Under the pieces are notes generated by a model. The model did no database searches, had not been told where the DNA came from, and saw nothing but the letters and a program-made list of their open reading frames with translations. Both the position numbers and the translations under genes were made by a program. DNA of 64,000 nucleotides from Candidatus Poribacteria bacterium (GTDB lineage: Bacteria; Poribacteria; WGA-4E; WGA-3G), in assembly GCA_965197475.1 (NCBI GenBank), contig CBDANF010000003.1, positions 1,728,001 through 1,792,000 of the forward strand, given 5' to 3'. Positions 22,985 through 51,421 of this stretch are shown here, in pieces (the stretch's first letter is position 1; each line of letters opens with the position of its first letter).

Positions 22985-23563
22985 TTAGTTGATCGCGGCA
23001 GATTTAAGGTGCTTCCATCCCTCAATAAGTAAGGAAATACCGCGAATTAGACATGCTACGACAGTGGCTGTGGCGAGTATTAACCCGCCTTGCTTGATGG
23101 TAAGGTTTTCGGGAGCATAAAGGTGCATCCATGCAAGGTAAAGAAAAGTAAGCATTTTCATAGTCCCGTAGACAGCACGACTGATACGAGACCGCATGAG
23201 CGCGTGCGCGAGTCTACTTTTCGGTGGAGTTATGTAGTGTTGCAAGTTGTCTGTTAATATCCCACGTGTCATGACAACGAGGGGAATCCATAAGGGAAGA
23301 TATCCTGCCACAGTGAAGTAAACCCAGAAGACGATCTCGATAATTCTGTCTGCTCCTGTGTCAAGGATTGCGCCGAACTCGGATGTTTCGTTTCGTATGC
23401 GTGCCACAAAACCGTCAACCGCATCCAGCGTGAATATAAGCGCAATTGTTGCAATGCAGGCGATGTCTAAGTAGGGATGTTCTCCAAACATTGCAATGAC
23501 AAAAAAGGTTAAGAAAATGCGACAGAGGGTTATAGTGTTTGCTATCATGCCGGGTTTCGTCAC
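22985..23563 (-). CDS. CDP-alcohol phosphatidyltransferase family protein
   Basis: ANTITLCR and DAVDGFVAR...TSEFGAILDTGADR signature; overlaps the stop of the upstream STT3-like gene by 4 nt. Confidence 0.9.
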   Translation of the reverse strand: MTKPGMIANTITLCRIFLTFFVIAMFGEHPYLDIACIATIALIFTLDAVDGFVARIRNETSEFGAILDTGADRIIEIVFWVYFTVAGYLPLWIPLVVMTRGILTDNLQHYITPPKSRLAHALMRSRISRAVYGTMKMLTFLYLAWMHLYAPENLTIKQGGLILATATVVACLIRGISLLIEGWKHLKSAAIN

Positions 23564-25227
23564 TTTTTCGGCACTGCTGTTTCAAGATATTTCTCGTCTG
23601 TTTCTATATCGGGTGGGTATTGAATTTCCCAGAGTTTGATATGTGATGCGGCGAAGTCCGTTTTAGGAAACACGGGTTTAAAGCCTCTGTATCCAAAGGG
23701 GTTTTTATTTAGAAGGGAGTCATGTGGGTCGTCAGGTGTGACAAGGATGTGTGTCGCCTCGTGTGTTTTGAGGTATTCAAGTGCTTCGCGTTCGGTTTTG
23801 GCGTGGTGAACATGTTGATTGTAGAGGTATATCCAGTTCGGTAGATAATGGTCTTGATCGATGAGGGTTTTAACGTCAGCAAGCACGTTGAGTTGGCTAC
23901 CGAACCGCCAATGTGCGGCGACAACACCGTCTTTTAGATTGGTTTTGATCCATGCAAATGTATCGTTGAGTATGCCATGTCCGGGAATAGCGGTGCGCAT
24001 CTGTGTCGCAGCATAAAGTGAGAATCGGGCGTGTCCGCCTATTGGTGCCCAAAAGAGGATGAGGGCGAGTGCGATGGCTGCTGCAATTTTATTGGTTTGT
24101 GTGTTGTTAAGGAAATTTTCGACTGTCTCTGCAAGCATCTTGATGCCGAGTGCAGTAAAGATAAAGACACTACCGTATCTGCCCGTCCAAAAACTAAAAT
24201 AGGTGTTCTTGAGTTCAGAAACGGTGTGCATGAGTGGGGTGTTCATTAAGATTGTTGTTGTCTCAAAGTTTTTGAGTTGTGTGAAAAGGTAACCGAGTCC
24301 GATAGCGAGCATTAAGACTGTCAATCCGAGTGAAAGTTTTCGACTGTGGCTTTTTAACGTCTCTGCTGTCTGAGGGATTGTAATAAGCAACTGCCGTAAT
24401 GCACGGATTACCAAAATCGCTATCGGTGGCACAAGCACAAAGGTAGTCAAGTGTTCAGCAAAGCCCACGCCACTGCGATATGCAGGCGCGATGATGTAAA
24501 GCATAGGCACAAATGAACACACCCAAAGCAGGTAATACCATAAATCTGTTTCGCTTTCTGAAGTAAGAAACCGCCATATCTCTATTGTGTAAATGATGAG
24601 AAGGAATGCACCAAAGCCTTCCCAGGATAGTCCGCCGAGAAGCGTAAAGAAGCCACTAATAAGTGTTAAAACGGTCCGCTTACGTGAGTTTTGCGTTTGC
24701 AACGCGATCAAATAAAAAATGATGGCACTGATAGCGAGTAAAAGACACCAGCAGTCTCTATCACCGAAACCGACGGTGCTGCGCCCAATGGTGCCGGGCA
24801 GCGTTGCAATCAGGATGCCCGTGGTATTCGCCACGAACGCACCGAATGTGCTATAAAGGAAAAAACAGAGAACGCCTAACCCCAGCACAAAACAGACAGT
24901 CGGCATGTAGATACAAACATGATAGAGGGATACGTCTTTGAAAAAAAGATGTGCCACTTTATAGGTATAAGCAAGCATATAAGAATAGAGTGGTAACAAC
25001 AACCCGTTATCTCTACCAATCGGCATCCATCGGTGCATATCGCGGGGAGGTAGTTTTCCCTGTTGGACGATAGTGTTTGCCTGCCAATAGTAGAAGTATC
25101 CATCATTTTCAAGGAACTGTCCATCAGGGAGGGTTTCCGCGCTTTGAATGCGTATCCAAAAGGCGAGAAAGAGAATGCTGCTGAACAGGAGGAGCGAGAC
25201 GAGGTGTTTGAAAAGTGGGGTTTTCAT
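23560..25227 (-). CDS. STT3/AglB/PglB-like oligosaccharyltransferase homolog (GT-C fold)
   Basis: FLENDGYFYY, GFGDRD (DxD), TVSE (TIXE-like), AHWRFG (WWDYG position) and DQDH occur in the canonical order, with multiple TM segments. Confidence 0.75.
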   Translation of the reverse strand: MKTPLFKHLVSLLLFSSILFLAFWIRIQSAETLPDGQFLENDGYFYYWQANTIVQQGKLPPRDMHRWMPIGRDNGLLLPLYSYMLAYTYKVAHLFFKDVSLYHVCIYMPTVCFVLGLGVLCFFLYSTFGAFVANTTGILIATLPGTIGRSTVGFGDRDCWCLLLAISAIIFYLIALQTQNSRKRTVLTLISGFFTLLGGLSWEGFGAFLLIIYTIEIWRFLTSESETDLWYYLLWVCSFVPMLYIIAPAYRSGVGFAEHLTTFVLVPPIAILVIRALRQLLITIPQTAETLKSHSRKLSLGLTVLMLAIGLGYLFTQLKNFETTTILMNTPLMHTVSELKNTYFSFWTGRYGSVFIFTALGIKMLAETVENFLNNTQTNKIAAAIALALILFWAPIGGHARFSLYAATQMRTAIPGHGILNDTFAWIKTNLKDGVVAAHWRFGSQLNVLADVKTLIDQDHYLPNWIYLYNQHVHHAKTEREALEYLKTHEATHILVTPDDPHDSLLNKNPFGYRGFKPVFPKTDFAASHIKLWEIQYPPDIETDEKYLETAVPKK

Positions 25228-25299
25228 AAAAAACTATAAAGAAGGGAACCGGTTGTGACACCAGTTCCCCACTTATGCGTTAATACGCAAGTGTAAGGT

Positions 25300-26730
25300 T
25301 TAACGATATAGATCCGAATGATAGTCGCGAAGAGTTGTCAAACGTTCTCCCGAACAGATACCACGTTGCATGAGATAATTCTGACATTTCGTGAAAAGTT
25401 CACCACAAGGTTCCGTTATCGCCGTGCCATCAGCACGCCTGCCTATGATTATACTACGGATGCACGTATAGGTCGCACACGCAGTGTCTAAAATGCAGAT
25501 CGGATTGATACATGCTGTGGCGGTCGTGGTACAACCACCATTGGGTGGGGGTGTGTTGCATCCACCATTGGGTGGGGGCGTGTTACAGCCGCCGTTTGAA
25601 GGGGGCGTGTTACAGCCGCCGTTTGAAGGGGGCGTGCCGCCGCCGTTCTGACCACCTAACGCAAGATAGTTGCTGGTGCCTTGCCCCATACCAACGCCAC
25701 CACCATCGCCAGATTGTGAGCCGCTGCCATTGGGGTAGTTGTGCAGGTGAATACACTTAAAATAGCCATTAGGATCCGCATCGCAATCGATGGTGGAGCC
25801 GTTGATGGTAAGTGAAGCAGGGCAGGGCCCCGATACCCATTCTTCATGCCCATTCGGTGTGCAAGGTTTAAAATATATCCCACAAGCAATACAAGGGAAA
25901 GCAGGTCTATGTCTCAATTCTTCCGGTTGACAACTCCAATACGGATCACCGCACCCCTTGTAAGTGCCATCGTCCTCTGGACAGGTTTTACAATGATTGT
26001 TTGCTGTTGGCACAATCTCCGTGCAGCTTTCATGTGCACACGTTATAACTGGGGTATCGCTATAGGTGACAGTCCACGACGCATCTATCTGTTTTGTGAT
26101 GGGCGTTCGGGACCCTTCCCGCCAGTCTCCTCCAAATCGGATAGCAACCGGTGTTTTGCTCAGACTCAGTTGAAAGGTTGCATCCTGCTCCGTGAGGATT
26201 GCCGGCTTCGGGACGATGGTAGATGTCACATTCTTTTCGTGCGTGCCGGGATAAAACCTGCTTGTTTCGACAGGCGCATTTATATCGCCAGAACTGTAAC
26301 CGGCTTTGACACGGTAGCACGGGAAGACAACCTTTTGAAACCACTCTACTTCTTTGTTTTCTTCCGTCTGATACCACGGGACATAACCGAAGGTATACCA
26401 TCTTTTGCCCCAGTCACCAACCTTTCGAACGGTAGACGCGCCTTCGCTAAACGTAAATTCAATGTTTCCAAATCCTGTAGCGAAGATACTGGCGTAGTAG
26501 GAGGCATGCGTTGGTGGTTTTTGGGGTTCCCATGAACCTCCCACCAACTCGCCAGATTGATCTACCTTTCGTGTCAAATGATAAGAACTGCCACTTGCAG
26601 GACTTACAGAGTAGTCCGTTCCTGTTGTTATTAAGAACTCAACATCAGCACTCTCTGACACAGGGACTAAGATCAATGGTAGTGCCATTATGAACATAAA
26701 CGTAATTGTAACATAAAAATTAAGTCTCAT
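25300..26730 (-). CDS. Cassette 6 protein B (type I head): secreted Cys/His-rich protein
   Basis: RBS GGAGGA before MRLNF; signal peptide; 4x TPPxNGGC repeats; conserved Cys-rich tail. Confidence 0.85.
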   Translation of the reverse strand: MRLNFYVTITFMFIMALPLILVPVSESADVEFLITTGTDYSVSPASGSSYHLTRKVDQSGELVGGSWEPQKPPTHASYYASIFATGFGNIEFTFSEGASTVRKVGDWGKRWYTFGYVPWYQTEENKEVEWFQKVVFPCYRVKAGYSSGDINAPVETSRFYPGTHEKNVTSTIVPKPAILTEQDATFQLSLSKTPVAIRFGGDWREGSRTPITKQIDASWTVTYSDTPVITCAHESCTEIVPTANNHCKTCPEDDGTYKGCGDPYWSCQPEELRHRPAFPCIACGIYFKPCTPNGHEEWVSGPCPASLTINGSTIDCDADPNGYFKCIHLHNYPNGSGSQSGDGGGVGMGQGTSNYLALGGQNGGGTPPSNGGCNTPPSNGGCNTPPPNGGCNTPPPNGGCTTTATACINPICILDTACATYTCIRSIIIGRRADGTAITEPCGELFTKCQNYLMQRGICSGERLTTLRDYHSDLYR

Positions 26731-26731
26731 T

Positions 26732-27664
26732 CTAATATCCTCCATCAATTATAGGTATTGGGACAGGTCGATCATTCGACTGTTGTAGCGTATGTTCTAA
26801 ACCGAATTTGCGGTAGACTTCTCTTATTGCCTCTTCTCTTTTTCTATCCTTTGCCTCTCTGGAGCTCGGGTCTCCACTATAGAGTCCACCATCTATAAGC
26901 GGCACGGGCCCTTGGGCCGCTGCGATCAGCGTTTCGATTTGTGCTGAGATGCGATTCCATTCAGCAGTATCCCCTCGGCGTTGTGCTTTTGCAAGTTCTG
27001 CTTGGAACGCCTCATGCTGTTCCCACTGTTCGAGGGTGGGGGCGAACCCTACTCCATCTTTATAGAAGATAGTGACGGTATTATCATAGTGTCTTAGTGT
27101 TTCCCCGTTGTGGTTCCGCATGTGCTGCCAGTTTGCACCGATAGGGGGCGGGTCTTCTCCCCATTCTTTACGATACGCCTCTAACCTTTTCCGTTCCTCT
27201 CTATAAGTCTCATAGAAAAGTTGTTTAGTGGCATCATCCATTTTTGAGAACCTCTCAACACATTCTTCTGGCGACATTTCCAAGAAATCCAAAAACTCCT
27301 TTTCAGGATAACTCAGTTTTGAAAATACCTCTTTGAGTTGCTCTGGTGACATTTTCAACCAACTCACAGTTTCTGTCGGCTGTGTTGATTTATCCTTCGG
27401 CACTGTCCGATGCCAATGATCACCATGCCAATATCCTGTTTCCCGAGATTCGCCCGGAGGCGGTGGTCTGACACCAGGCTCAGGCGTGTTTACTTCCTGT
27501 GGTGAACCCTTTGGCTTAGGTCCGTCTTCCAAAAGTTTTTTGGTTGCATCACCTAATACCATTTCCGACTCAGTGTCAGTATCCCGCGGTATCAGTAAGA
27601 ACACACCCGCAATTCCAATCAGTAGCATGAGGATTGCAAGTCCCCATATCATCTGCTTTTTCAT
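26732..27664 (-). CDS. Cassette 6 protein A (type I): N-terminally anchored protein
   Basis: MKKQMIW TM anchor, PPPPG, WHGDHWH, GFAPT and YRKFGLEH motifs. Confidence 0.85.
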   Translation of the reverse strand: MKKQMIWGLAILMLLIGIAGVFLLIPRDTDTESEMVLGDATKKLLEDGPKPKGSPQEVNTPEPGVRPPPPGESRETGYWHGDHWHRTVPKDKSTQPTETVSWLKMSPEQLKEVFSKLSYPEKEFLDFLEMSPEECVERFSKMDDATKQLFYETYREERKRLEAYRKEWGEDPPPIGANWQHMRNHNGETLRHYDNTVTIFYKDGVGFAPTLEQWEQHEAFQAELAKAQRRGDTAEWNRISAQIETLIAAAQGPVPLIDGGLYSGDPSSREAKDRKREEAIREVYRKFGLEHTLQQSNDRPVPIPIIDGGY

Positions 27665-27692
27665 AAGGATTCTCCTTATCTTTCATTTGCCT

Positions 27693-27857
27693 TTATTTCG
27701 CTGCGTCCAGCGTGCAAGGCGGTTTGTTTTGTTCCATACAAGCGGGGATTTCTGCCTGCGTAGCATCAATCATTTTGATTGTGCCAAAGAGCAGTCCGCC
27801 ACCCATAATAACAATAAGTGCCACGGTCAGTCCTATTTTTAAAAATTTCGTTTTCAC
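27693..27857 (-). CDS. Cassette 6 small two-Cys peptide (54 aa)
   Basis: GTG start after AGGAGGT; MKTKFLKIGLTVALIVIMGGGLLFGTIKMIDATQAEIPACMEQNKPPCTLDAAK. Below the ORF-track cutoff. Confidence 0.75.
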   Translation of the reverse strand: MKTKFLKIGLTVALIVIMGGGLLFGTIKMIDATQAEIPACMEQNKPPCTLDAAK

Positions 27858-27963
27858 AAATTATACACCTCCTTTCAAAATTAGTCAAAAAGACCGACCA
27901 AACGATGACAACTGTAAATCAAAACATCAGTATGAAATACCTTTCATAATTAAAGACACAGTT

Positions 27964-28146
27964 TTAGACCGAAAAGGGTGCATACGATATAAAAAAATGA
28001 ATTTTGTCTAAAGATTTGGTAAAACTACCGCTTGCGCTCCTCACTTCGCGAAAGTTTTTCACACTATCCTGTATCCGAAAGCACAGAAAGAGAATGCTGA
28101 TGAGCAATAGGAGCGGGAGGATTTGTTTGAAAAGTGGGGTTTTCAT
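27964..28146 (-). pseudogene. 5' fragment of STT3-like gene fused to linker
   Basis: MKTPLFKQILPLLLLISILFLCFRIQ resembles the first ~27 aa of 23560-25227, then reads into linker sequence. Confidence 0.75.
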
Positions 28147-28157
28147 AATAAACTATA

Positions 28158-28193
28158 AAGTGGGGAACCGGTTGCGACACCGGTTCCCCACTT
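28158..28193. terminator. Conserved cassette hairpin (terminator-like or processing site)
   Basis: 15-bp perfect stem AAGTGGGGAACCGGT/ACCGGTTCCCCACTT; copies at ~25239, 30835, 35157 and 37876. Confidence 0.6.
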
Positions 28194-28218
28194 ATGCGTT
28201 AATACGCAAGTGTAAGGT

Positions 28219-29517
28219 TTAACGATATAGATCCGAATGATAGTCGCGAAGAGTTGTCAAACGTTCTCCCGAACAGATACCACGTTGCATGAGAAGATTC
28301 TGACATTGCGTGAAAAGTTCACCACAAGGTTCCGTTATCGCCGTGCCATCAGCACGCCTGCCTATGATTATACTACGGATGCACGTATAGGTCGCACACG
28401 CAGTGTTTCTAATGCAGATCGGGTTGATGCACGCTGTGGCGATTGTGGTACAGCCACCATTTGCCGGGGGCGTGTTACAGCCGCCGTTTGAAGGGGGCGT
28501 GCCGCCGCCGTTCTGACCACCTAACGCAAGATAGTTGCTGGTGCCTTGCCCCATGCCAACGCCGCCGCCATTGCCTTGTTGTCCACCACCATTACCTTGT
28601 TGACCGCCGCCATTGCCGCTACCACTACCGCTACTTGGGAACTGGTGGATATGCGACGGATCACACCTATAAAAACCTTTTACAGTACAATAAACATTTC
28701 CTCCATCCTGGGTGATGTTAACGGGGCAATTAACTTGCCATGCATGTGCATATGCTTCACTTGGATCAATAATGTGAATGCCGCACTCACCCCGGATTTT
28801 ATCGTTAATCGTGACGGAGTAACTTCCATTGTAAGGATCCGCATTAACGTCACGAGTGATGCCTGCCTCCCATTTCCAATATGTTGACTCCCCAATAACA
28901 AAACTGAGTGATGCGCTTGGCGTTGTACTTGCTTGTGCAGTAAGTGCCTTTTGTTTGCTTTTGTATGTCACAATACTACGTGAACGAGACTGGACAACAC
29001 CAGTAGCTGATACATTGACGGTAGTAGGACTGATTTCCTCGGCAGTCCCAATTTCGTCGGTATTATAAAGCCCGTTCATTTCTTTTATTCTAAAAGAGTA
29101 AACCTCCCTCTCTGCTTTTTTCAGGGGCTCAGAGGCCCAATTGCCAATGGGATAATCCCGTGTCTTTTTCTTAAGGGTAAAAGCAATTTCGCCGTATCCG
29201 GTGGCATTAACCATAATCGTTATGTAGTGAAAGTCTCCAGGTTTGGTAGGTTCCCAATCTTCCTCAAGAATAAGGCTACCAAAATAACTCCCTTGAGCTG
29301 CAAGGGAATAAATCACTCGTTCCCCATGGTAATTTGTTTTATTTCCTGGAGTTGATATAATTACCGGATTAGAGACGTATAATCCGTTAGAATCCATATC
29401 CGAGCGGTCTTCTGCCCAGAGTTCATTACGAATCCAGAAAAAAGAAGCATTTATGTCAATATGAAAAGCAAAAAATGTGAAAAAGATGACGCATATCCAT
29501 AGTCGCTGATTTTTCAT
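28219..29517 (-). CDS. Cassette 5 protein B (type II head)
   Basis: Signal peptide; EDRSDMDSNGLY head shared with cassette 2; 2x TPPxNGGC; conserved tail. Confidence 0.85.
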   Translation of the reverse strand: MKNQRLWICVIFFTFFAFHIDINASFFWIRNELWAEDRSDMDSNGLYVSNPVIISTPGNKTNYHGERVIYSLAAQGSYFGSLILEEDWEPTKPGDFHYITIMVNATGYGEIAFTLKKKTRDYPIGNWASEPLKKAEREVYSFRIKEMNGLYNTDEIGTAEEISPTTVNVSATGVVQSRSRSIVTYKSKQKALTAQASTTPSASLSFVIGESTYWKWEAGITRDVNADPYNGSYSVTINDKIRGECGIHIIDPSEAYAHAWQVNCPVNITQDGGNVYCTVKGFYRCDPSHIHQFPSSGSGSGNGGGQQGNGGGQQGNGGGVGMGQGTSNYLALGGQNGGGTPPSNGGCNTPPANGGCTTIATACINPICIRNTACATYTCIRSIIIGRRADGTAITEPCGELFTQCQNLLMQRGICSGERLTTLRDYHSDLYR

Positions 29518-29535
29518 AAGTAGTCTCCTTTTATT

Positions 29536-30333
29536 TTAATAGGAATGTTTTTCCTTGTAAAGTTCATATAGATGTTCAACGCCCAAGCGTTGATAGAGCT
29601 CTAAAACCGCTTTATTATCAAGTTTTATCTGATTCTCTATAGGAATTGGATCTCCATAATACCCAAAACCGGTAGGATCAGGGACCTCCCCTTGTGATGA
29701 GTCAACAAGAGTTTGAATCTCGCTTCTAATACGTTGTATCTCCGCTAAGGTATCACCGGAATATAACTCGCCATTTTTGAGATCTGATAATTTATCTTTC
29801 AAGGCTGCACGTAATTGCTTGTATTGTTGCAACTGTACAGGCATCGGTGCGAAACCTGTTTTTAAATCATAATGAGACACGACAACTGTATTTCTATAAT
29901 GCCGAACGACGTTTCCGTGATTATCACGAAAGTGTTGATATGAACCGTCTGGCGATGGGTCTTCTCCCCATTTAGCTCTATATTCCGCGAGTTGCTGCTC
30001 CCGGAGTGCTTTGACCCTTGCCTTAATTTCTGCTTCAGAAAGTTCAGGCAGTGTTTGCAGAGTTGTAGCGGTATCCGCGGGTGCCGCATGCGGTTCTTCG
30101 TGCCAAACACCATCGTGCCAGTGTCCGTTAGGTGATACACCGGGCGGTGGTGGTTTGCCCGCTTCTTGTGCAGACACCTGTTGCTTTGGTCCGTCCTCCA
30201 AAAGTTTTTTGGTTGCCTCACCTAATACCAGTTTCGACTCAGTGTCGGTATCCTGCGGCATCAGTAAGAAAACACCAGCAATTCCAATCAGTAGCATGAG
30301 GATTGCAAGTCCCCATATCATCTGCTTTTTCAT
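29536..30333 (-). CDS. Cassette 5 protein A (type II)
   Basis: MKKQMIW anchor; GHWHDGVWHEEPH; KWGEDPSPDGSYQHFRDNHG shared with cassette 2. Confidence 0.85.
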   Translation of the reverse strand: MKKQMIWGLAILMLLIGIAGVFLLMPQDTDTESKLVLGEATKKLLEDGPKQQVSAQEAGKPPPPGVSPNGHWHDGVWHEEPHAAPADTATTLQTLPELSEAEIKARVKALREQQLAEYRAKWGEDPSPDGSYQHFRDNHGNVVRHYRNTVVVSHYDLKTGFAPMPVQLQQYKQLRAALKDKLSDLKNGELYSGDTLAEIQRIRSEIQTLVDSSQGEVPDPTGFGYYGDPIPIENQIKLDNKAVLELYQRLGVEHLYELYKEKHSY

Positions 30334-30361
30334 AAGGATTCTCCTTATCTTTCATTTGCCT

Positions 30362-30529
30362 TTATTTCGCTGCGTCCAGCGTGCAAGGCGTTTTGTTTTG
30401 TTCCATACAAGCGGGGATTCCTGCCTGCGTAGCATCAATCATTTTGATTGTGCCAAAGAACAGCCCTCCACCCATAAAAACAATCAGTGCCGTGGTCAGT
30501 CCTATCTTTCGCCACCGTTGCTTTTTCAC
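30362..30529 (-). CDS. Cassette 5 small two-Cys peptide (55 aa, variant b)
   Basis: GTG start after AGGATG; MKKQRWRKIGLTTALIVFMGGGLFFG...IPACMEQNKTPCTLDAAK. Confidence 0.75.
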   Translation of the reverse strand: MKKQRWRKIGLTTALIVFMGGGLFFGTIKMIDATQAGIPACMEQNKTPCTLDAAK

Positions 30530-30634
30530 AATTATATACATCCTTTCAAAATTAGTCAAAAAGACCGACCAAACGATGACAACTGTAAATCAAAACATCA
30601 GTATGAAATACCTTTCATAATTAAAGACACAGTT

Positions 30635-30823
30635 TTAGACCGAAAAGTGTGCATACGATATAAAAAAATGAATTTTGTCTAAAGATTTGGTAAAACTACC
30701 GCTTGCGCTCCTCACTTCGCGAAAGTTTTTCACACTATCCTGTATCCGTATCCAAAAGGCGAGAAATAGGATACTGATGAGCAATAGGAGCGGGAGGATT
30801 TGTTTGAAAAGCGGGGTTTTCAT
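30635..30823 (-). pseudogene. 5' fragment of STT3-like gene fused to linker
   Basis: MKTPLFKQILPLLLLISILFLAFWIRIQ followed by linker-derived DSVKNF. Confidence 0.75.
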
Positions 30824-30895
30824 AATAAACTATAAAGTGGGGAACCGGTTGCGACACCGGTTCCCCACTTATGCGTTAATACGCAAGTGTAAGGT

Positions 30896-33767: not shown

Positions 33768-33802
33768 TAAAAACTCCTTGGGAATGTGTATTCTCTTTAT
33801 TG

Positions 33803-34663
33803 TTATCTATATTTTTCGGGGATGAGGTAATCAAACCCCGCTTTTCTATATTCTGCGTAAAGCACTTCTTTTTGTATCCGCATTGCGCGCTGGAGGAGCG
33901 CATCTGCGTGTGCATCTGTTGTTGTTGGGTGAGATAGAGAAACAACAAGATCAGGGATATTTCTATAGCATGCCTGACGGAACGCCTTGAGTTCAGCATT
34001 GATACGTTCCGCTTCAGCAGTCTGTCCCCATCCGTGCGCTTGGGTATACTCACGTTGCATTTCTTTATAACGTTCGTATTCTTCGCGTGTGGGTGCGAAT
34101 CCGATTTCGGTTACAACCCTAAAATAGGGTTCATAGTCTTTGTGTAAAATAGGATTACCGTTTTCATCCAGATCTAGCAACCCCTTTGTGTCTCGGAGAC
34201 GAATAGAGTATCCGGAGGGTGTATCTAGAAATCCGAAATTGTTCAGATCCTGAACCCGGACATTTATTCGTTCTTCTAGAGAAAGTTTCGTCCAGGCTTC
34301 AGGTAAAGTGCCGAAGGATTTCTGGAAAGGGATGTGACGGTCAGGATACGGTTCGTTTGATTGAGGTGCCGTCGGGAGCTCAACAGATGTCTTTCCCGGA
34401 ACGGTTCTGTGCCAACGGTCACCGTCCCAATGTCCTGTTTCGTGGGTTTCACCGGGTGGGGGTGGTCTGATACCAGGCTCAGGCGTGTTTGCTTCCTGCG
34501 GCGAGCCTTTTGGATTAGGTCCGTTCTCCAAAAGCTTTTTGGTTGCCTCACCTAATACCATTTCCGACTCAGTATCAGTATCCCGCGGTATCAGTAAGAA
34601 CACACCAGCAATTCCAATCAGTAGCATGAGGATTGCAAGTCCCCATATCATCTGCTTTTTCAT
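33803..34663 (-). CDS. Cassette 3 protein A (type III)
   Basis: MKKQMIW anchor; GHWDGDRWH; GFAPT; YRKAGFDYL. Confidence 0.85.
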   Translation of the reverse strand: MKKQMIWGLAILMLLIGIAGVFLLIPRDTDTESEMVLGEATKKLLENGPNPKGSPQEANTPEPGIRPPPPGETHETGHWDGDRWHRTVPGKTSVELPTAPQSNEPYPDRHIPFQKSFGTLPEAWTKLSLEERINVRVQDLNNFGFLDTPSGYSIRLRDTKGLLDLDENGNPILHKDYEPYFRVVTEIGFAPTREEYERYKEMQREYTQAHGWGQTAEAERINAELKAFRQACYRNIPDLVVSLSHPTTTDAHADALLQRAMRIQKEVLYAEYRKAGFDYLIPEKYR

Positions 34664-34691
34664 AAGGATTCTCCTTATCTTTCATTTGCCT

Positions 34692-34856
34692 TTATTTCAC
34701 TGCGTCCAGCGTGCAAGGCGTTTTGTTTTGTTCCATACAAGCGGGGATTTCTGCCTGCGTAGCATCAATCATCTTGATTGTGCCAAAGAGCAGTCCGCCA
34801 CCCATAATAACAATAAGTGCCACGGTCAGTCCTATTTTTAAAAATTTCGTTTTCAC
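34692..34856 (-). CDS. Cassette 3 small two-Cys peptide (54 aa, variant a)
   Basis: GTG after AGGAGGT; near-identical to 27693-27857. Confidence 0.75.
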   Translation of the reverse strand: MKTKFLKIGLTVALIVIMGGGLLFGTIKMIDATQAEIPACMEQNKTPCTLDAVK

Positions 34857-34962
34857 AAATTATACACCTCCTTTCAAAATTAGTCAAAAAGACCGACCAA
34901 ACGATGACAACTGTAAATCAAAACATCAGTATGAAATACCTTTCATAATTAAAGACACAGTT

Positions 34963-35145
34963 TTAGACCGAAAAGGGTGCATACGATATAAAAAAATGAA
35001 TTTTGTCTAAAGATTTGGTAAAACCACCGCTTGCGCTCCTCACTTCGCGAAAGTTTTTCACACTATCCTGTATCCAAAAGGCGAGAAAGAGAATGCTGCT
35101 GAACAGGAGGAGCGAGACGAGATGTTTGAAAAGTGGGGTTTTCAT
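34963..35145 (-). pseudogene. 5' fragment of STT3-like gene fused to linker
   Basis: MKTPLFKHLVSLLLFSSILFLAFWI is identical to the start of the full-length gene. Confidence 0.78.
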
Positions 35146-35216
35146 AAAAAACTATAAAGAGGGGAACCGGTACTATAACCGGTTCCCTCTTATGTGTTAA
35201 TACGCAGGTGTAAGGT

Positions 35217-36593
35217 TTAATAAAATTCATCCGAATGGTAGTCATAAGCAGTTGTCTTACGTTCTCCTGAACAGATACCACGTTGCATGAGATAATTCTG
35301 ACATTTCGTGAAGAGTTCACCACAAGGTTCCGTTATCACCGTGCCATCAGCACGCCTGCCTATGATTATACTACGGATGCACGTATAGGTCGCACACGCA
35401 GTGTCTAAAATGCAGATCGGATTGATACATGCTGTGGCGGTCGTGGTACAACCACCATTGGGTGGGGGTGTGTTGCATCCACCATTGGGTGGGGGCGTGT
35501 TACAGCCGCCGTTTGAAGGGGGCGTGTTACAGCCGCCGTTTGAAGGGGGCGTGCCGCCGCCGTTCTGACCACCTAACGCAAGATAGTTGCTGGTGCCTTG
35601 CCCCATGCCAACGCCGCCGCCATTGCCCTGTTGTCCACCACCATCGCCTTGTTGACCGTCGCCATTGCCGCTACCACTACCGCTACTTGGGAACTGGTGG
35701 ATATGCGACGGATCACACCTATAAAAACCTTTTACAGTACAATAAACATTTCCTCCATCCTGGGTGATGTTAACGGGGCAATTAACTTGCCATGCATGTG
35801 CATATGCTTCACTTGGATCAATAATGTGAATGCCGCACTCACCCCGGATTTTATCGTTAATCGTGACGGAGTAACTTCCATTGTAAGGATCCGCATCAAC
35901 GTCACGAGGTATACCTGCCTCCCATTTCCAATATGATGACTCTCCAATAATGAAGCCAATTCCCGCGCCTGAGCTCCCCGCTTGCGCAGTTATTGCGCTC
36001 TGTTCGCTTCCGTATGTCACAATTCTCCGAGATTGTGTCGTGGCTTTACCTGTAGCATATATAGAAACAGTCGTAGGACTAATCTGAGCGGCATCATAAG
36101 CAGGTAGGTTGGGATTAACAACGCCATTAGGTTTTTTTCTACGGAAGGTGTAAACTTCACGTTCCGCTTTTTGTATCGGTTCTGAAGTCCAATGACCGAT
36201 GGAAAAATCCTCTGTCTCTCCGTTGAGCGTAAAAGCAACTTCGCCGTACCCGGTAGCACTGATGGATATCTTTAGGTAGTGATAGTTTTCGGGCTTGTAA
36301 GGTGTCCACGATTCCGAAAGTATAAAAGATACCGGAAGGTTGGGATCGGTGATGGTTCGTTCTCCATGCATATTCAAACCATTCATAGGAGTTGTCTGAA
36401 TTACCGGTTTAGAAGCGTATAAACCACTCGATTCCATATCTGCACGATTTTCTTCCCACCATAGCCGTGCTTCCCATGATTCAATGAAGTCAGGCGGCAT
36501 ATAATAGAGCATGCGGGCTAACGCGGTTGTGCTAATGCAAAAAACTAAAAACACTAAACAGCAAAGAAGAATCATATACTGTTTGTTTTTCAT
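35217..36593 (-). CDS. Cassette 2 protein B (type II head)
   Basis: Likely start MKNKQY (RBS AGGAGA at 36601-36606); EENRADMESSGLY head; 4x TPPxNGGC; conserved tail. Confidence 0.85.
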   Translation of the reverse strand: MKNKQYMILLCCLVFLVFCISTTALARMLYYMPPDFIESWEARLWWEENRADMESSGLYASKPVIQTTPMNGLNMHGERTITDPNLPVSFILSESWTPYKPENYHYLKISISATGYGEVAFTLNGETEDFSIGHWTSEPIQKAEREVYTFRRKKPNGVVNPNLPAYDAAQISPTTVSIYATGKATTQSRRIVTYGSEQSAITAQAGSSGAGIGFIIGESSYWKWEAGIPRDVDADPYNGSYSVTINDKIRGECGIHIIDPSEAYAHAWQVNCPVNITQDGGNVYCTVKGFYRCDPSHIHQFPSSGSGSGNGDGQQGDGGGQQGNGGGVGMGQGTSNYLALGGQNGGGTPPSNGGCNTPPSNGGCNTPPPNGGCNTPPPNGGCTTTATACINPICILDTACATYTCIRSIIIGRRADGTVITEPCGELFTKCQNYLMQRGICSGERKTTAYDYHSDEFY

Positions 36594-36606
36594 GAGTCTA
36601 TCTCCT

Positions 36607-37374
36607 TTAGTAACTACGTTCCCCGTAGAGTTCGTAGAGGTGTTCAACGCCCATGTGCTGATAGAAAGATTGTAACGCTTCGTTATGAAGATTTCTCTCC
36701 TGCTCTCCAGAAATTGGGTCTCCATAATATCTAAAACCAACAGGATCTGGGATTTCACCTTGGGCAGCGTTAACAAGTGATCGAATCTCGTCGTCAAGAC
36801 GTTGCATCTCCGAGATGTTTTCTTTTGATGCAGCGTCTTTCATGGCGGCACGTAGTTGCTTGTAGCGTTTCAATTCTGCGGGTGTCGGTGCAAAATCTAC
36901 TTTTAGATCGTAGCGGGATACAGCAATCGTTCCTCTATAATGCCGATGGACATTTCCGTGATTATCACGAAAGTGTTGATATGAACCGTCTGGCGATGGG
37001 TCTTCTCCCCATTTATCTCGATATTCCGCGAGTTGCTGCTCCCGGAGTGCTTTGACCCTTGCCTTAATTTCTGCTTCAGAAAGTTTAGATAGTGTTTGCG
37101 GAGCTGTGGTGGTATCCGCGGGTGCCGCATGCGGTTCTTCGTGCCAAACGCCATCGTGCCAGTGTCCGTTAGGTGATGCACCGGGCGGTGGTGGTTTGCC
37201 CGCTTCTTGTGCAGACACCTGTTGCTTTGGTCCGTCCTCCAAAGGTTTTTTGGTTGCCTCACCTAATACCAGTTTCGACTCAGTGTCGGTATCCTGCGGC
37301 ATCAGTAAGAAAACACCAGCAATTCCAATCAGTAGCATGAGGATTGCAAGTCCCCATATCATCTGCTTTTTCAT
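36607..37374 (-). CDS. Cassette 2 protein A (type II)
   Basis: Near-identical to cassette 5 protein A over the N-terminal ~140 aa. Confidence 0.85.
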   Translation of the reverse strand: MKKQMIWGLAILMLLIGIAGVFLLMPQDTDTESKLVLGEATKKPLEDGPKQQVSAQEAGKPPPPGASPNGHWHDGVWHEEPHAAPADTTTAPQTLSKLSEAEIKARVKALREQQLAEYRDKWGEDPSPDGSYQHFRDNHGNVHRHYRGTIAVSRYDLKVDFAPTPAELKRYKQLRAAMKDAASKENISEMQRLDDEIRSLVNAAQGEIPDPVGFRYYGDPISGEQERNLHNEALQSFYQHMGVEHLYELYGERSY

Positions 37375-37402
37375 AAGGATTCTCCTTATCTTTCATTTGC
37401 CT

Positions 37403-37570
37403 TTATTTCGCTGCGTCCAGCGTGCAAGGCGTTTTGTTTTGTTCCATACAAGCGGGGATTCCTGCCTGCGTAGCATCAATCATTTTGATTGTGCCAAAGA
37501 ACAGCCCTCCACCCATAAAAACAATCAGTGCCGTGGTCAGTCCTATCTTTCGCCACCGTTGCTTTTTCAC
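37403..37570 (-). CDS. Cassette 2 small two-Cys peptide (55 aa, variant b)
   Basis: Same protein as 30362-30529. Confidence 0.75.
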   Translation of the reverse strand: MKKQRWRKIGLTTALIVFMGGGLFFGTIKMIDATQAGIPACMEQNKTPCTLDAAK

Positions 37571-37675
37571 AATTATATACATCCTTTCAAAATTAGTCAA
37601 AAAGACCGACCAAACGATGACAACTGTAAATCAAAACATCAGTATGAAATACCTTTCATAATTAAAGACACAGTT

Positions 37676-37864
37676 TTAGACCGAAAAGTGTGCATACGAT
37701 ATAAAAAAATGAATTTTGTCTAAAGATTTGGTAAAACTACCGCTTGCGCTCCTCACTTCGCGAAAGTTTTTCACACTATCCTGTATCCGTATCCAAAAGG
37801 CGAGAAATAGGATACTGATGAGCAATAGGAGCGGGAGGATTTGTTTGAAAAGCGGGGTTTTCAT
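37676..37864 (-). pseudogene. 5' fragment of STT3-like gene fused to linker
   Basis: Same translation as 30635-30823. Confidence 0.75.
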
Positions 37865-37936
37865 AATAAACTATAAAGAGGGGAACCGGTTGCGACACCG
37901 GTTCCCCACTTATGCGTTAATACGCAGGTGTAAGGT

Positions 37937-39301
37937 TTAACGATATAGATCCGAATGATAGTCGCGAAGAGTTGTCAAACGTTCTCCCGAACAGATACCA
38001 CGTTGCATGAGAAGATTCTGACATTTCGTGAAAAGTTCACCACAAGGTCTTGTCACCCACGAACCATCATTTCTCTGGCTTACTTTTATCCTACGGATGC
38101 ACGTATAGGTCGCACACGCAGTGTCTAAAATGCAGATCGGATTGATACATGCTGTGGCGGTCGTGGTGCAACCACCATTTGATGGAGGTGTGCCACCGCC
38201 ACCATTACCCGCGTTCGCTTCAAGCGCATCGGTACACTCACTGCAAGTGCCACTAATTCTCGCGCAGGTCGCGCAGGTTCCACCACCATTGCCGGGGTTC
38301 TGCCCTATGCCACCACCATTGCCTTGTTGACCGCCACCATTGCCTTGTTGCGATCCACTACCAAATTGGTGCGTGTGATACACGCACTGGTAAAACCATT
38401 CCACAGTGCAAGTAAAACCGTTTTCATCTGTTTTGGAGCAACTTTCTTCAAAAACATGATTACCGGGATGCTTAAAACACGGATATGTATCCAGACATCC
38501 GTAGCATACGGTGTAATGCTCGTGGAGGTCATCCCGTAATGTAGACTTGCATATCCAGCATTGCAACTCTTCTGCATAGGACCAGCTCCCCGATTTGCTA
38601 GTGCTATCATGGGCACTAAATGTCCACATATCATCTGAAATCTCCGTTGTTATTGATCTTCCATTAGATAGTGTGACTGTGTGAGAGATACCTGGTTCAA
38701 AGCCAACAGACACTGTAGACTCTGAACCGTATTCCGTTGAGACAGTCACCGAGGAGGTGCCTTTCCATCTGACATTAGCGATTCTGACAGTCCCTGCCCC
38801 CGACCATGTGCCGCCTTTTTTCTCTGGAACATAAGCCCATCGCGACCAATAAAAAACAGCTGAGTCCGATTCGGCATAAGCTGTTCCATCTTCAATACCA
38901 TCATTTACGTTGATGTTTACACCCCAAGATCCGATCTCAGCGACGCGAGAAGCTCCGTTATAGTCAACCAGTGGTTCACCATTGATTGTCGCGGAATCAA
39001 TGGTGAACTGCGCCTCACCATACCCGTATAATGCGGCATTAAGCCTTACCTCTGCAATGCTAGGCATTAGTCCCGGAGTTCTTGTTACGGCATGTTCTCC
39101 ACCATAACTACATGGCGTAGACGTCGCTGCAAAATCTGGTATGCAATGGTATGCATACGTATAGTTTTCTGCCATGTTAGAGTCAACGAAACAGGGAGTA
39201 CCACTGTCATCAAAATTCAAAGTCGTTCTTCCACCGAATGAACTTTGTGGTAATATGAAAAAAATACTAAGCGTTATTGTCAAAAATAGTTTATTAAACA
39301 T
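37937..39301 (-). CDS. Cassette 1 protein B (type IV head)
   Basis: Signal peptide, unique head, Cys/His-rich middle (CWIC, CYGC, CATC), 1x TPPSNGGC and conserved tail. Start 39301 or 39307. Confidence 0.85.
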   Translation of the reverse strand: MFNKLFLTITLSIFFILPQSSFGGRTTLNFDDSGTPCFVDSNMAENYTYAYHCIPDFAATSTPCSYGGEHAVTRTPGLMPSIAEVRLNAALYGYGEAQFTIDSATINGEPLVDYNGASRVAEIGSWGVNINVNDGIEDGTAYAESDSAVFYWSRWAYVPEKKGGTWSGAGTVRIANVRWKGTSSVTVSTEYGSESTVSVGFEPGISHTVTLSNGRSITTEISDDMWTFSAHDSTSKSGSWSYAEELQCWICKSTLRDDLHEHYTVCYGCLDTYPCFKHPGNHVFEESCSKTDENGFTCTVEWFYQCVYHTHQFGSGSQQGNGGGQQGNGGGIGQNPGNGGGTCATCARISGTCSECTDALEANAGNGGGGTPPSNGGCTTTATACINPICILDTACATYTCIRRIKVSQRNDGSWVTRPCGELFTKCQNLLMQRGICSGERLTTLRDYHSDLYR

Positions 39302-39315
39302 TATCAAATCTCCTT

Positions 39316-40203
39316 TTAGTCTTCGACGATTTCGAGTTCCTGACCATCAATTATAATTGTCCGGGGTTCTGGACGAAGCAAATGCTCTAATCCCATATGT
39401 CTATAGGCTGCACGTAGGATTGGTTTCCTTTTTTCTGCAAGCGAATGTTCAAATGCTTCTGTTCCATATTCACTTGGATCTGCCTTCCCGAATGTAGAAA
39501 AGCTTGGAAGTTTACCCTGCGCGTCAGCAGTAAGGGAATCAATCTCTGCGGAAAGTTGCTGTATGAGGTTCATATCGTTGTCACGCTTTGCTTCCTTTAA
39601 CTTGCGTTGCAGTTCTTGGTACCGCTCATATTGTTGAAGCGTTGGCGCAAAGCCGGTATGCGTAGTTATCCAATATTGCGTGGAATCCGCCTCCATATTT
39701 ATCAAAAAAGGAGCACCGTTATCTAAGACAATTTCTTTATCATCTATCAAGAGATAGTCATAACCTTTAGGTGGAGGTTCTATCCCGAGAGAGAGATAAC
39801 GACGTATCCGCCTCAGATCGGCTCTTTGCTTACTGTTAACAGGAATAGGTTCACCATTCGAACCTATAGAACCATCCCAATACTTGCTGAGTTCAGTTTC
39901 GTTCAAGGGTTGTTCCCGTGGTGTCTGACCATCATTCGGTTTTCTGGAATGCCAGTGGTCACCGTGCCAATATCCTGTTTCTTTTGTTTCGCCAGGGGGC
40001 GGTGGTCTGACACCAGGCTCAGGCGTGTTTACTTCCTGTGGTGAACCCTTTGGCTTAGGTCCGTCTTCCAAAAGTTTTTTGGTTGCATCACCTAATACCA
40101 TTTCCGACTCAGTGTCAGTATCCCGCGGTATCAGTAAGAACACACCCGCAATTCCAATCAGTAGCATGAGGATTGCAAGTCCCCATATCATGTGCTTTTT
40201 CAT
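39316..40203 (-). CDS. Cassette 1 protein A (type IV)
   Basis: MKKHMIW anchor; WHGDHWH; GFAPT; YRHMGLEHL. Confidence 0.85.
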   Translation of the reverse strand: MKKHMIWGLAILMLLIGIAGVFLLIPRDTDTESEMVLGDATKKLLEDGPKPKGSPQEVNTPEPGVRPPPPGETKETGYWHGDHWHSRKPNDGQTPREQPLNETELSKYWDGSIGSNGEPIPVNSKQRADLRRIRRYLSLGIEPPPKGYDYLLIDDKEIVLDNGAPFLINMEADSTQYWITTHTGFAPTLQQYERYQELQRKLKEAKRDNDMNLIQQLSAEIDSLTADAQGKLPSFSTFGKADPSEYGTEAFEHSLAEKRKPILRAAYRHMGLEHLLRPEPRTIIIDGQELEIVED

Positions 40204-40231
40204 AAGGATTCTCCTTATCTTTCATTTGCCT

Positions 40232-40396
40232 TTATTTCGCTGCGTCCAGCGTGCAAGGCGGTTTGTTTTGTTCCATACAAGCGGGGATTTCTGCCTGCGT
40301 AGCATCAATCATCTTGATTGTGCCAAACAGCAGTCCGCCACCCATAATAACAATAAGTGCCACGGTCAGTCCTATTTTTAAAAATTTCGTTTTCAC
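40232..40396 (-). CDS. Cassette 1 small two-Cys peptide (54 aa, variant a)
   Basis: GTG after GGAAGGAGGT; near-identical to 27693-27857. Confidence 0.75.
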   Translation of the reverse strand: MKTKFLKIGLTVALIVIMGGGLLFGTIKMIDATQAEIPACMEQNKPPCTLDAAK

Positions 40397-40482
40397 ATTA
40401 TACACCTCCTTCCAAAATTTATCAACTAAAACTAAACAAATGGCAGGGTTGTTTAGTTTTAAGTTTGTTCATTTAGTCGAAA

Positions 40483-40547
40483 GTCGCGACCGGGAGGTCG
40501 CTCCTACAGCATAAAATAGGAAGTCGTAATTCGGAAGTCGCTTCTAC
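40483..40547. repeat. REP-like (GTAG family) pair
   Basis: GTCGCGACCGGGAGGTCGCTCCTAC and the degenerate GTCGTAATTCGGAAGTCGCTTCTAC. Confidence 0.6.
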
Positions 40548-40555
40548 AGAATAAA

Positions 40556-41203
40556 TCACGTTTGTTTTCCAAGAAGTGATTGAATTATCTCGCTGCCTAC
40601 CATATCGGTGTAATCGTCAGGGTATTTGGCTTTGAGCAGAGCTTTCAACTCTTTTCTACCCCGATTCAACTGAACCTTAACATTACCCTCTTTGATCTTC
40701 AACTGCTTAGCAATTTCTTTGTACGGCATACCTGTGGCACGTAACAGTATTGCATCCTTCTGCGTTTGCGGAAACTGCTCCATCAAACGGCGAACGATTT
40801 CCATATATTCGTTGTGAATCGTGATGCGTTCAGGTTCCAGATACGCAGATGCGGATTTAACATCTGTTTCCACAAATTCGTCTTCAGAAACGCCACCAGC
40901 GGGTTCATAGGACTCACGTTTTTTCTGATTTTCAAACCATCCTGCCTTTTTTCTGTTCGCGATGGTGAACAGCCAAGAATTGAACCTTTCAGGTTTCCGA
41001 ATTGTGCGTATGTTTTCCATCGCTGCAAGGAGCGTATCTTGGACGAGGTCTGCCACATCCTCCGGGTTTCCGATACCTCCATTGTAGAAAAATTGGGCAA
41101 GTCTGCGTCCACATTCTGAACAGAGGGTATCCCATGCTGCTTTGTTACCGGATTGGTAAGATTGGACAAGTTCTGCATCACGCTTAACTGTCTTAAGCTT
41201 CAC
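40556..41203 (-). CDS. ECF RNA polymerase sigma factor (sigma-70 family)
   Basis: Region 2 (DLVQDT...FNSWLFTIA.R) and region 4 (GMPYKEIAKQLKIKEGNVKVQLNRGRKELK). Confidence 0.92.
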   Translation of the reverse strand: MKLKTVKRDAELVQSYQSGNKAAWDTLCSECGRRLAQFFYNGGIGNPEDVADLVQDTLLAAMENIRTIRKPERFNSWLFTIANRKKAGWFENQKKRESYEPAGGVSEDEFVETDVKSASAYLEPERITIHNEYMEIVRRLMEQFPQTQKDAILLRATGMPYKEIAKQLKIKEGNVKVQLNRGRKELKALLKAKYPDDYTDMVGSEIIQSLLGKQT

Positions 41204-41240
41204 CCGATTCGCCTTTTTGGTCTACGGATAACAATTTATG

Positions 41241-41424
41241 TGTAGAAATTGGGAGAAATGTTACATGTTTTGCTCCCAATTGAACCAAATTCCTGCATAA
41301 AATGCGTAAACTCATGCATTTTATGCGTTTGTATAGTAGGTGCAGAAATCGGGTCAAAAAGTTACAAGTATTTTATTCAACAAAATCCGCCTCGTTCCAA
41401 CTACAGAAATTAGGAAACTTTAAC
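41241..41424 (-). promoter_or_regulatory. Repeated putative ECF promoter/operator motifs
   Basis: Minus strand TGTAACATTTCTCCCAATTTCTACA (41241-41265), TGTAACTTTTTGACCCGATTTCTGCA (41341-41366) and a weaker GTTAAAGTTTCCTAATTTCTGTAG (41401-41424). Confidence 0.45.
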
Positions 41425-41489
41425 TTTTTGCAAGCGTTATATATTTTGTAAAAAACAAGGGTTTCATGAAGCATTTTTCTTAACATACA

Positions 41490-51416: not shown

Positions 51417-51421
51417 TTATA

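Follow-up and report, generated by a model that had tools for sequence, protein, structure and literature searches.

A six-cassette array of peptide, anchored-protein and secreted-protein genes upstream of an STT3-like gene in a Candidatus Poribacteria genome

The pilA-tfpO and pilA-tfpW loci of Pseudomonas aeruginosa consist of a pilin gene followed by the gene for a dedicated glycosyltransferase. Orphan toxin-immunity cassettes of the contact-dependent inhibition (CDI) and Rhs systems lie in tandem as promoterless fragments, with constant stretches around a two-gene variable region. The rpoE-rseA-rseB genes encode a sigma factor, a single-pass membrane anti-sigma factor and a secreted protein that binds it, and Neisseria pilE/pilS and Borrelia vlsE use silent cassettes for antigenic variation at one expression site. 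Here we describe a locus with features of each of these systems in a Candidatus Poribacteria metagenome-assembled genome (MAG; 5.70 Mb in three contigs, 92.7% complete, 7.0% contamination). The window analysed is a 64,000-nucleotide stretch of contig CBDANF010000003.1 (G000:C3:1728001-1792000), and all positions without a contig prefix refer to it. The locus occupies the minus strand from 22985 to 41203 and contains, in order, a gene for an extracytoplasmic function (ECF) sigma factor, six cassettes, an STT3-like gene and a CDP-alcohol phosphotransferase gene. We propose, with confidence about evenly divided, that an envelope operon specific to Poribacteria was amplified here into six tandem cassettes with the functions set out below. 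Four rival explanations, ranked in the order effector-immunity pairs, sigma module, neutral decay and assembly artefact, are taken up beside the evidence that bears on them.

A full cassette consists of a small membrane peptide gene, a gene for anchored protein A, a gene for secreted protein B and a hairpin; at internal junctions a copy of the STT3 start comes after the hairpin. An earlier note on this DNA had described one co-oriented minus-strand locus with sigma factor, cassettes, STT3-like gene and phosphotransferase gene, and all of these parts were found where it had placed them. Its count of six peptide/A/B/hairpin/STT3-copy units stands for the A genes, six of which are present, and is too high for the rest. 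Five peptide genes are intact and a sixth (pep4) is truncated at its 5′ end, and five B genes are intact beside one truncated head. Hairpins follow B1, B2, B4, B5 and B6 (five in all), the last of them preceding the real STT3 gene downstream of cassette 6, and STT3 5′ copies are found at four junctions (1-2, 2-3, 4-5 and 5-6). Complete open reading frames (ORFs) for peptide, A and B, each set with GGAGG-type leaders, are retained in five of the six cassettes.

Like pilA-tfpO and pilA-tfpW, the locus places the gene for a putative secreted or envelope substrate directly upstream of a membrane glycosyltransferase gene predicted to act on the C-terminal part of the substrate, in a pairing that is conserved across relatives; unlike them, it has an STT3-like enzyme, a non-pilin substrate, an additional peptide and anchored partner, and a sixfold substrate unit. 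The enzyme shares with the STT3/AglB/PglB oligosaccharyltransferases (OSTs; PF02516) a GT-C membrane domain, an acidic residue in external loop 1 (EL1) and the DRD and T-V-x-E-L motifs, but it reads HWRFG for WWDYG, lacks 109 residues in the window copy and belongs to a family that is expanded in Poribacteria with a hypervariable motif. The CDI/Rhs arrays also have constant stretches that flank a two-gene variable region and recombination through the constant parts, whereas here the gene sets are complete, no toxin or immunity family was found and the constant and variable ends of B are reversed. The order of a sigma factor, a membrane protein with one transmembrane pass and its predicted secreted binding partner recalls rpoE-rseA-rseB, but the cytoplasmic anti-sigma domain is missing and the sigma gene is absent from six of eight related loci. 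Variable cores between constant flanks and recombination between cassettes are shared with pilE/pilS and vlsE, which differ in having a single expression site; no recombinase or invertase was found among the flanking genes scanned here.

The repeat structure was determined by self-BLAST, a repeat finder and alignment of the junctions. Constant blocks some 1.1 kb long, which extend from the B tail through the hairpin, STT3 start, spacer and peptide to the A N terminus and have 84-100% identity, flank cores, each made of an A body and a B head, with 46-74% identity. This bracketing of a variable A body and B head by constant DNA (peptide plus A N terminus on one side, B tail to spacer on the other) had been noticed before and is evident in both the self-comparison and the block identities. 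Each internal junction runs from the B stop codon through about 30 nt, the hairpin, 15 nt, the first 25-27 STT3 codons, a sharp break and a spacer of about 190 nt to the GGAGG leader and peptide start. The four junctions lie at 37601-37936 (1-2; hairpin 37880-37907, spacer about 37601-37790), 34888-35216 (2-3; hairpin 35162-35187), 30560-30895 (4-5; hairpin 30835-30870) and 27889-28218 (5-6; hairpin 28158-28193), and a spacer is present in each. The break between GGATACAGG and ATAGTGTG, at about STT3 codon 27, is identical at all four, which indicates that all copies derive from one founding duplication. The alignment establishes that this duplication joined STT3 at about codon 27 to the ~190-nt sequence upstream of the peptide gene and was then amplified. 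The exact STT3-start/spacer joint had no match in public metagenome contigs and none in public genome contigs.

The spacer is unique to the array except for a 62-nt match upstream of a paralogous peptide gene in the same genome, and cassette 1 has only its last ~45 nt. Those are the only part of the sigma-pep1 intergenic region (40406-40555) common to the cassette spacers; the region otherwise carries palindromes resembling repetitive extragenic palindromic (REP) elements. A REP-like palindrome of 31 nt at 40480-40510 has 29 short matches elsewhere in the genome, and its depth is very high, with many different flanks and loose ends, also in unrelated sequencing runs. The leader is not a dispersed element: at up to five mismatches only the five array copies match. 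The hairpins are strong and are followed by T-rich sequence. Fusion of the STT3 start to the spacer creates four ORFs of 60-62 residues with one hydrophobic helix (37676-37864, 34963-35145, 30635-30823 and 27964-28146), which gave no family match and are probably by-products.

Divergence differs by block. Nucleotide identity is 97.9-100% among the four spacer copies, 91-99% in the A N terminus and 84-99.6% in the B tail, and falls to 46-56% in the A body (74% for A2-A5) and 53-57% in the B head (64% for B2-B5 and 66% for B4-B6). Synonymous divergence (dS) is 0-0.25 in the A N terminus and 0.03-0.38 in the B tail, and is saturated or above 1.2 in the cores apart from A2-A5 (0.47). The blocks also group the cassettes in conflicting ways: the A N terminus pairs 1 with 6 and 2 with 5, the B tail pairs 4 with 5, and the heads pair 2 with 5 and 4 with 6. 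B4 and B5 have tails that are 99.6% identical and heads that are 54% identical. This disagreement between flanks and cores indicates recombination between cassettes, and the comparison shows that the ~1.1-kb blocks, once amplified, kept exchanging by homologous recombination or gene conversion. Reshuffling by homologous recombination, as suggested in the earlier note, is thus borne out by the B4/B5 conflict and by flank dS values of 0-0.38 against mostly saturated cores. It is well supported by these alignments that the constant blocks are young through exchange and not through constraint on the proteins, and that the cores are old, divergent, under purifying selection and not hypermutated. 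Core ratios of nonsynonymous to synonymous divergence (dN/dS) of 0.2-0.5 give no indication of diversifying selection. The proposal in the earlier note that the locus encodes a diverse set of anchored and secreted proteins between constant flanks is supported. The accompanying comparison with antigenic variation is not supported: no feature looks like a switching system, every cassette comprises a full set of genes with start codons and a ribosome-binding site of its own, and neither an invertase nor a reverse transcriptase was found among the flanking genes scanned.

The boundary of cassettes 3 and 4, which the earlier note had described as partly deleted, carries an insertion-sequence remnant. 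The ORF of the truncated B3 head (33438-33767) encodes 109 residues, about the first 99 of which are genuine and match the start of P0006, a full-length protein of 510 aa from another metagenome contig. At 33470/33471 the head abuts a 159-nt insertion-sequence end (33312-33470), which has five other copies in the genome at 98.7-99.4% identity, each running into a DDE transposase gene (DDE_Tnp_1). The constant block resumes at 33311, inside the pep4 gene, and the pep4 remnant (33192-33311, lower boundary estimated) has no start, spacer or leader. These boundaries show that the remainder of B3, the hairpin, the STT3 copy, the spacer and the pep4 start were lost when an insertion sequence entered and a deletion followed. 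Short-read contigs in samples X1 and X6 extend past 33470 in other forms, one of them joined to B1-like sequence, which indicates that intact B3 variants are present in the population.

Damage of this kind could mean that the array is a recent segmental amplification without particular function that is now decaying, an explanation that would also cover the large deletion in the terminal STT3 gene and the tandem A or peptide-A repeats present in other genomes. We consider it very unlikely. All six A genes and five of six B genes are intact, and the anciently diverged cores with their dN/dS of 0.2-0.5 are unlike a recent neutral duplication. RNA contigs also match several cassettes: in a sponge metatranscriptome, 13 contigs fall on the array at 95% identity or more, and the eight that were listed cover B heads and tails, A4 and the pep3 region. 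Stretches that no RNA contig covers and differences in depth between cores are no more than hints.

The peptides are 54-65 residues long, with one membrane helix and a two-cysteine tail. Their membrane segment and the motif GGGLLFGTIKMIDATQ are conserved in six paralogs of the same genome and in relatives. The array peptides are all of this short form, and a long form with two extra membrane helices (three in total; 153-158 residues) is found only outside the array in this genome (C2:1190412-1190888, C2:1194025-1194501, C3:2830957-2831433 and C2:610907-611368). From its N terminus, protein A consists of a membrane helix, a linker rich in proline, a G-x-W-H-x-x-x-W-H hairpin and a roughly 200-residue body. 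Its N-terminal module (anchor, P-P-P-x-G-E, G-x-W-x-G-x-x-W-H) is reused on other bodies at C3:583890-587084, C2:609579-610874, C2:1211109-1212428 and C2:1456647-1457723, and some proteins with this anchor module carry sequence resembling tetratricopeptide repeats (TPR); the TPR hits on one related protein were weak and below the Pfam cut-off. Protein B begins with a signal peptide and a beta-rich head, continues through a Cys/His-rich middle and Gly/Asn/Gln-rich linkers, and includes between one and four NGGC units and a Cys-rich tail. The repeat unit of nine residues, T-P-P-x-N-G-G-C-x, is encoded by 27-nt tandem repeats.

By the ORF list, and with NGGC units from a motif count, the first cassette contains pep1 (40232-40405, with a likely true start at MKTKF, a few codons in), A1 (39316-40203; 295 aa) and B1 (37937-39307; 456 aa, Cys/Gly-rich, one NGGC unit). 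The second contains pep2 (37403-37600), A2 (36607-37374; 255 aa) and B2 (35217-36593), counted here from MKNKQY; the called ORF begins at a TTG further upstream, so that it extends to 36797 and into A2. Beside the remnants described above, cassettes 3 and 4 retain pep3 (34692-34856), A3 (33803-34663; 286 aa), A4 (32357-33163; 268 aa) and B4 (30896-32326; 476 aa, four NGGC units), the head of which is nearest to that of B6. Cassette 5 consists of pep5 (30362-30559), A5 (29536-30333; 265 aa) and B5 (28219-29517; 432 aa, two NGGC units), and cassette 6 of pep6 (27693-27857), A6 (26732-27664; 310 aa) and B6 (25300-26730; 476 aa from MRLNF, four NGGC units). The last hairpin, between B6 and the real STT3 start, is at 25243-25270, and differing hairpins occupy the same place in relatives. 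The genes flanking the locus encode sulfatase, glycoside-hydrolase-like, ankyrin, WD40 and Rieske proteins, and none of those scanned encodes a recombinase, invertase or reverse transcriptase. Elsewhere, a low-GC stretch at 50001-52000 has a GC fraction of 0.34 against about 0.44 in the rest of the window.

Neither Pfam nor NCBIfam matched the peptide, A or B (A genes scanned included A1, A3 and A6, with three B genes), and no toxin, immunity or anti-sigma family was among the results; PADLOC and PHROGs were not searched. B-like paralogs and relatives with multiple repeats likewise had no Pfam match, and the ESM Atlas gave no usable match for A6 or the B6 head. A search with B6 found 12 proteins among 5.8 billion, five of them the window's own, and a search with A6 found 29; the B profile found 69 representative clusters among 1.84 billion proteins. 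Within the phylum, A is present in 79 of 176 genomes and B in 50, and within one poribacterial family (f1) in 74 and 48 of 111, respectively. The B profile had no confirmed relative in public metagenome contigs and one in public genome contigs, in Poribacteria MAG G107. Of 20 related loci chosen among the best hits, 15 have A next to B; the peptide gene was found by tblastn in five related loci and by eye in three more. Further peptide-A-B triads exist in the same genome, two of them in tandem on contig C2. None of the relatives examined has more than one STT3-linked cassette, and one (L092) has one extra A gene. By these comparisons the peptide, A and B family is real, lineage-restricted and nearly confined to one poribacterial family. 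Literature on Poribacteria with STT3, oligosaccharyltransferase or N-glycosylation describes, by title and abstract, no such locus.

A structure model of A6 had a predicted local distance difference test (pLDDT) value of 81, with the body above 90, and is an alpha/beta domain. The Foldseek comparison that the earlier note had asked for, run with the A6 model against the PDB, gave no match at E ≤ 0.001, the best being E 0.7. A complex of the two cassette 6 proteins was modelled from A6 residues 98-300 and B6 residues 25-330 and scored a median of 0.75, compared with 0.37 for the best control. Among solved complexes 58 of 80 attain this mark, as do 2 of 110 mismatched pairs; the calibration is only approximate here, as our own alignments were used. 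The runs share at least 40% of contacts at a partner pLDDT of 51-67, and the modelled interface sets an A strand (257-267) against a B strand (125-134). As a prediction, the model supports binding of the A body to the B head.

Such pairs bear on the possibility that the cassettes are polymorphic effector-immunity pairs, with B a secreted toxin or bacteriocin-like protein and A an anchored periplasmic immunity protein, stacked for strain competition. The variable stretch runs from the end of one gene into the beginning of another, as it does in toxin-immunity modules; the model supports A6-B6 binding, several old divergent pairs stand in tandem under purifying selection, and cassette content seems to vary between co-occurring strains. 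We nevertheless judge it unlikely. No toxin or immunity family matches A or B, and a variable N-terminal head with a constant tail is the reverse of known polymorphic toxins. The anchor module of A is family-wide and is also used by TPR-like proteins, and the conserved link to a glycosyltransferase would be left unexplained.

The STT3-like GT-C gene (23560-25227; 555 aa) matches PF02516 (E 2.1e-17) at 64 bits against a cut-off of 24.5 over residues 11-302; TIGR04154 reached only 61 bits against a cut-off of 450. Its HWRFG aligns to WWDYG of yeast STT3 2lgz (profile search, E 0.0025) and of a canonical paralog (C3:322883), and its C-terminal domain can be aligned to the yeast protein in the region of that site; a PDB search with a single STT3 ortholog found nothing, and only the profile reached yeast STT3. 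In an excerpt of PMC8342417, the pocket that takes the sequon Ser/Thr is described as built from WWDYG and the DK/MI motifs, and the acidic motifs (two DXD-type motifs and TIXE/SVSE) are named here after the same excerpt. The acidic EL1 residue (Asp), DRD and T-V-x-E-L are kept, and N-D-G-Y, G-D-R-D and T-V-S-E-L are conserved with paralogs. With these acidic motifs the enzyme looks catalytic. The window copy lacks, in frame at about 24159/24160, the 109 residues that are present in four aligned orthologs (663-695 aa, 69-81% identity), and an X1 contig (23977-24878) bridges the deletion site. Its sequence sets the window STT3 apart from canonical OSTs, and in this strain the enzyme may be disabled.

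STT3-like genes are numerous in the poribacterial family f1, where 92 of 112 genomes have matches at E ≤ 1e-60, up to 10 each. In 28 aligned sequences, 20 of which (L105-L124) were hand-picked from more than 300 matches, the WWDYG equivalent occurs in 20 variants: the sequence on either side is highly conserved, and positions 1 and 3 are hypervariable. Own-genome paralogs lie at C3:322883-325807, C3:339942-342455, C3:531350-533809 and C2:1054352-1056121, and only one has a canonical WWDYG. The closest paralog (C3:2522036-2524700) is a pseudogene with one TGA, one TAG and one TAA codon, followed by a CDP-alcohol phosphotransferase paralog that is 66% identical.

Gene order and motifs link this enzyme to B. 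All eight non-self STT3 hits at 65% identity or more (L052-L055 and L090-L093) have B directly upstream and are preceded by a single peptide-A-B unit, and a ninth locus (L094), with a truncated STT3, has B upstream as well, so the peptide-A-B-STT3 part of the synteny that the earlier note had asked for was recovered in relatives. The six B-linked STT3 genes examined all read x-W-R-F-G. NGGC within P-x-x-N-G-G-C-T-T is invariant in eight aligned STT3-adjacent B proteins and is present in B of L090-L093, and it is absent from all five own-genome B-like paralogs not beside an STT3. Outside this genome, the four DNA hits to the strict motif all lie beside an STT3, and a reversed-pattern control gave none. 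The idea of a dedicated OST survives as a conserved B-STT3 link and fails as a canonical OST, given HWRFG and the deletion in the window copy.

The terminal CDP-alcohol phosphotransferase gene (22985-23563; 192 aa; PF01066, E 2.4e-18) has a start that overlaps the STT3 stop by 4 nt and is translationally coupled. CDP-alcohol phosphatidyltransferases carry the signature D-x2-D-G-x2-A-R...G-x3-D-x3-D, which is fitted by the DAVDGFVAR, eight residues and GAILDTGAD of the translation. The gene had been listed as part of the locus, yet it was found beside none of nine related loci, two of which (L094 and L090) have little or no sequence covered downstream of STT3. A GT2 gene follows STT3 in two of eight loci and overlaps the STT3 stop.

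The ECF-type sigma factor gene at the head of the locus (40556-41203; 215 aa) matches Sigma70_r4_2 (E 2.3e-13), Sigma70_r2 (E 4.9e-09) and TIGR02937 (E 2.6e-21), and its best paralog in the genome is 31% identical. Orthologs with 57-60% identity head two of eight related loci (L090 and L093), so its presence at such loci is not constant. A non-coding region of about 170 nt upstream of sigma is conserved in three loci (window 41204-41400, L090 about 2000-2180 and L093 about 2700-2869), where TGTAAC followed by GATTTCTGCACCTACTATAC forms a candidate autoregulated ECF promoter. Sigma-70-like hexamers (11 of 12 matches) at five cassette starts were not counted as promoters: they overlap the GGAGG ribosome-binding site, stop 0-3 nt short of the start codon and keep this position in relatives. 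Compared over 40441-41253, sample X3 has 28 differences within about 690 positions of the sigma gene, and in place of the sigma-pep1 intergenic stretch 40442-40564 it carries 31 unrelated letters, which indicates that the head of the locus also varies between strains.

These features could suit an ECF signalling module in which unconventional anti-sigma sensing falls to the peptide, A or both, and B modulates it by binding A in the periplasm, as RseB binds RseA. The order of sigma factor, anchored protein and secreted binder is that of rpoE-rseA-rseB, and the two sigma-headed relatives and the TGTAAC-containing region in three loci fit as well. Its prospects are slim. Ahead of its membrane helix the peptide has just 7-20 residues, and in A the helix comes first, which leaves no room for a cytoplasmic anti-sigma domain; six of eight related loci have no sigma gene, and it is hard to see why one sigma factor would need six sensor copies. 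No ECF-type promoter or TGTAAC-type element was seen by eye in the spacers, for which no pattern search was run.

We return to the envelope operon. In the ancestral layout, a membrane peptide, an anchored periplasmic A and a secreted B would have been followed, across a hairpin, by a non-canonical STT3-like glycosyltransferase. Each core would encode a cognate pair in which, on the modelled interface, the A body grips its own B head in the periplasm by adding a strand to a beta-sheet. The constant tail of B with its P-x-x-N-G-G-C-T-T units would be the site modified by the STT3-like enzyme, and the hairpin would keep expression of the enzyme below that of the structural genes. The array would then provide several variant A-B pairs on a common chassis in one cell, and their use could be surface display, matrix formation or competition. 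The evolutionary part of this account (founding duplication, amplification, flank exchange, ancient cores and insertion-sequence damage) is well supported, and we infer the functional part (A-B docking, modification of the B tail and tuning of enzyme expression by the hairpin).

A number of observations weigh against it. No fold, family or atlas match gives a function to A, B or the peptide, the B6 model is poor (pLDDT 51) and unfit for a fold search, and one of the three complex runs scored 0.39. The STT3 deletion removes about four membrane helices, which makes glycosylation by the window's copy doubtful in this strain, and a second STT3 gene, that of L094, is also gutted. In that locus (G071:C1:2111123-2114148; B with NGGC, then STT3) only STT3 residues 1-275 and 479-548 were matched. 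NGGC is not an N-x-S/T sequon, and glycosylation of the B tail is what we infer from motif and gene order. A hairpin stands between B and STT3 in every locus, and co-expression is not required. The RNA contigs may stem from DNA in the library. Finally, the order and number of the cassettes come from the assembly only. Exact short-read contigs match all five unique cores in two DNA samples of one study, a possible source of the assembly, but no contig spans a constant block. Word depth in the cores is below that of the flanks in both DNA runs (in X3, 17.8-51.5 compared with 57-80), and not every cell may carry every cassette.

The last points would also follow if the assembler had strung single-cassette alleles of co-existing strains in tandem, as could happen in a MAG with about 7% contamination and no read or contig across a constant block; core depth lower than flank depth and the alternative forms at 33470 and in the sigma region fit as well. 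We give an assembly artefact only a small chance. Every internal junction carries the STT3-start/spacer fusion, which by the junction alignment and the B-to-STT3 sequences of relatives is not expected in a single-cassette locus, and an insertion-sequence remnant joins cassettes 3 and 4. The summed core depths are about two to three times the flank depth and not equal to it, and the locus lies in a 4.17-Mb contig of a three-contig assembly.

Tandem recombining envelope multigene families are a known kind of locus; this one consists of three protein families without known relatives, in an uncultivated phylum of sponge symbionts. Its gene order ties the array to an STT3-like enzyme without the motif that defines the classical N-glycosylation sequon. 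A broader and rather improbable reading would make the Poribacteria STT3 genes a large paralogous family of substrate-dedicated protein glycosyltransferases with a re-tuned acceptor pocket (x-W-x-x-G). The x-W-R-F-G clade would modify a non-canonical site, the NGGC units in B tails, with a lipid-linked donor from the neighbouring GT2 or CDP-alcohol phosphotransferase, and the array would give a sponge symbiont a set of variant envelope proteins that are glycosylated and docked to their partners. If A-B pairing and tail modification fail, the envelope array would still be a clear case of concerted flank evolution around ancient cores. If they are true, it would supply a substrate-enzyme pair for bacterial STT3 paralogs with altered pockets, natural cognate pairs for specificity studies and a candidate surface repertoire for life inside sponges.

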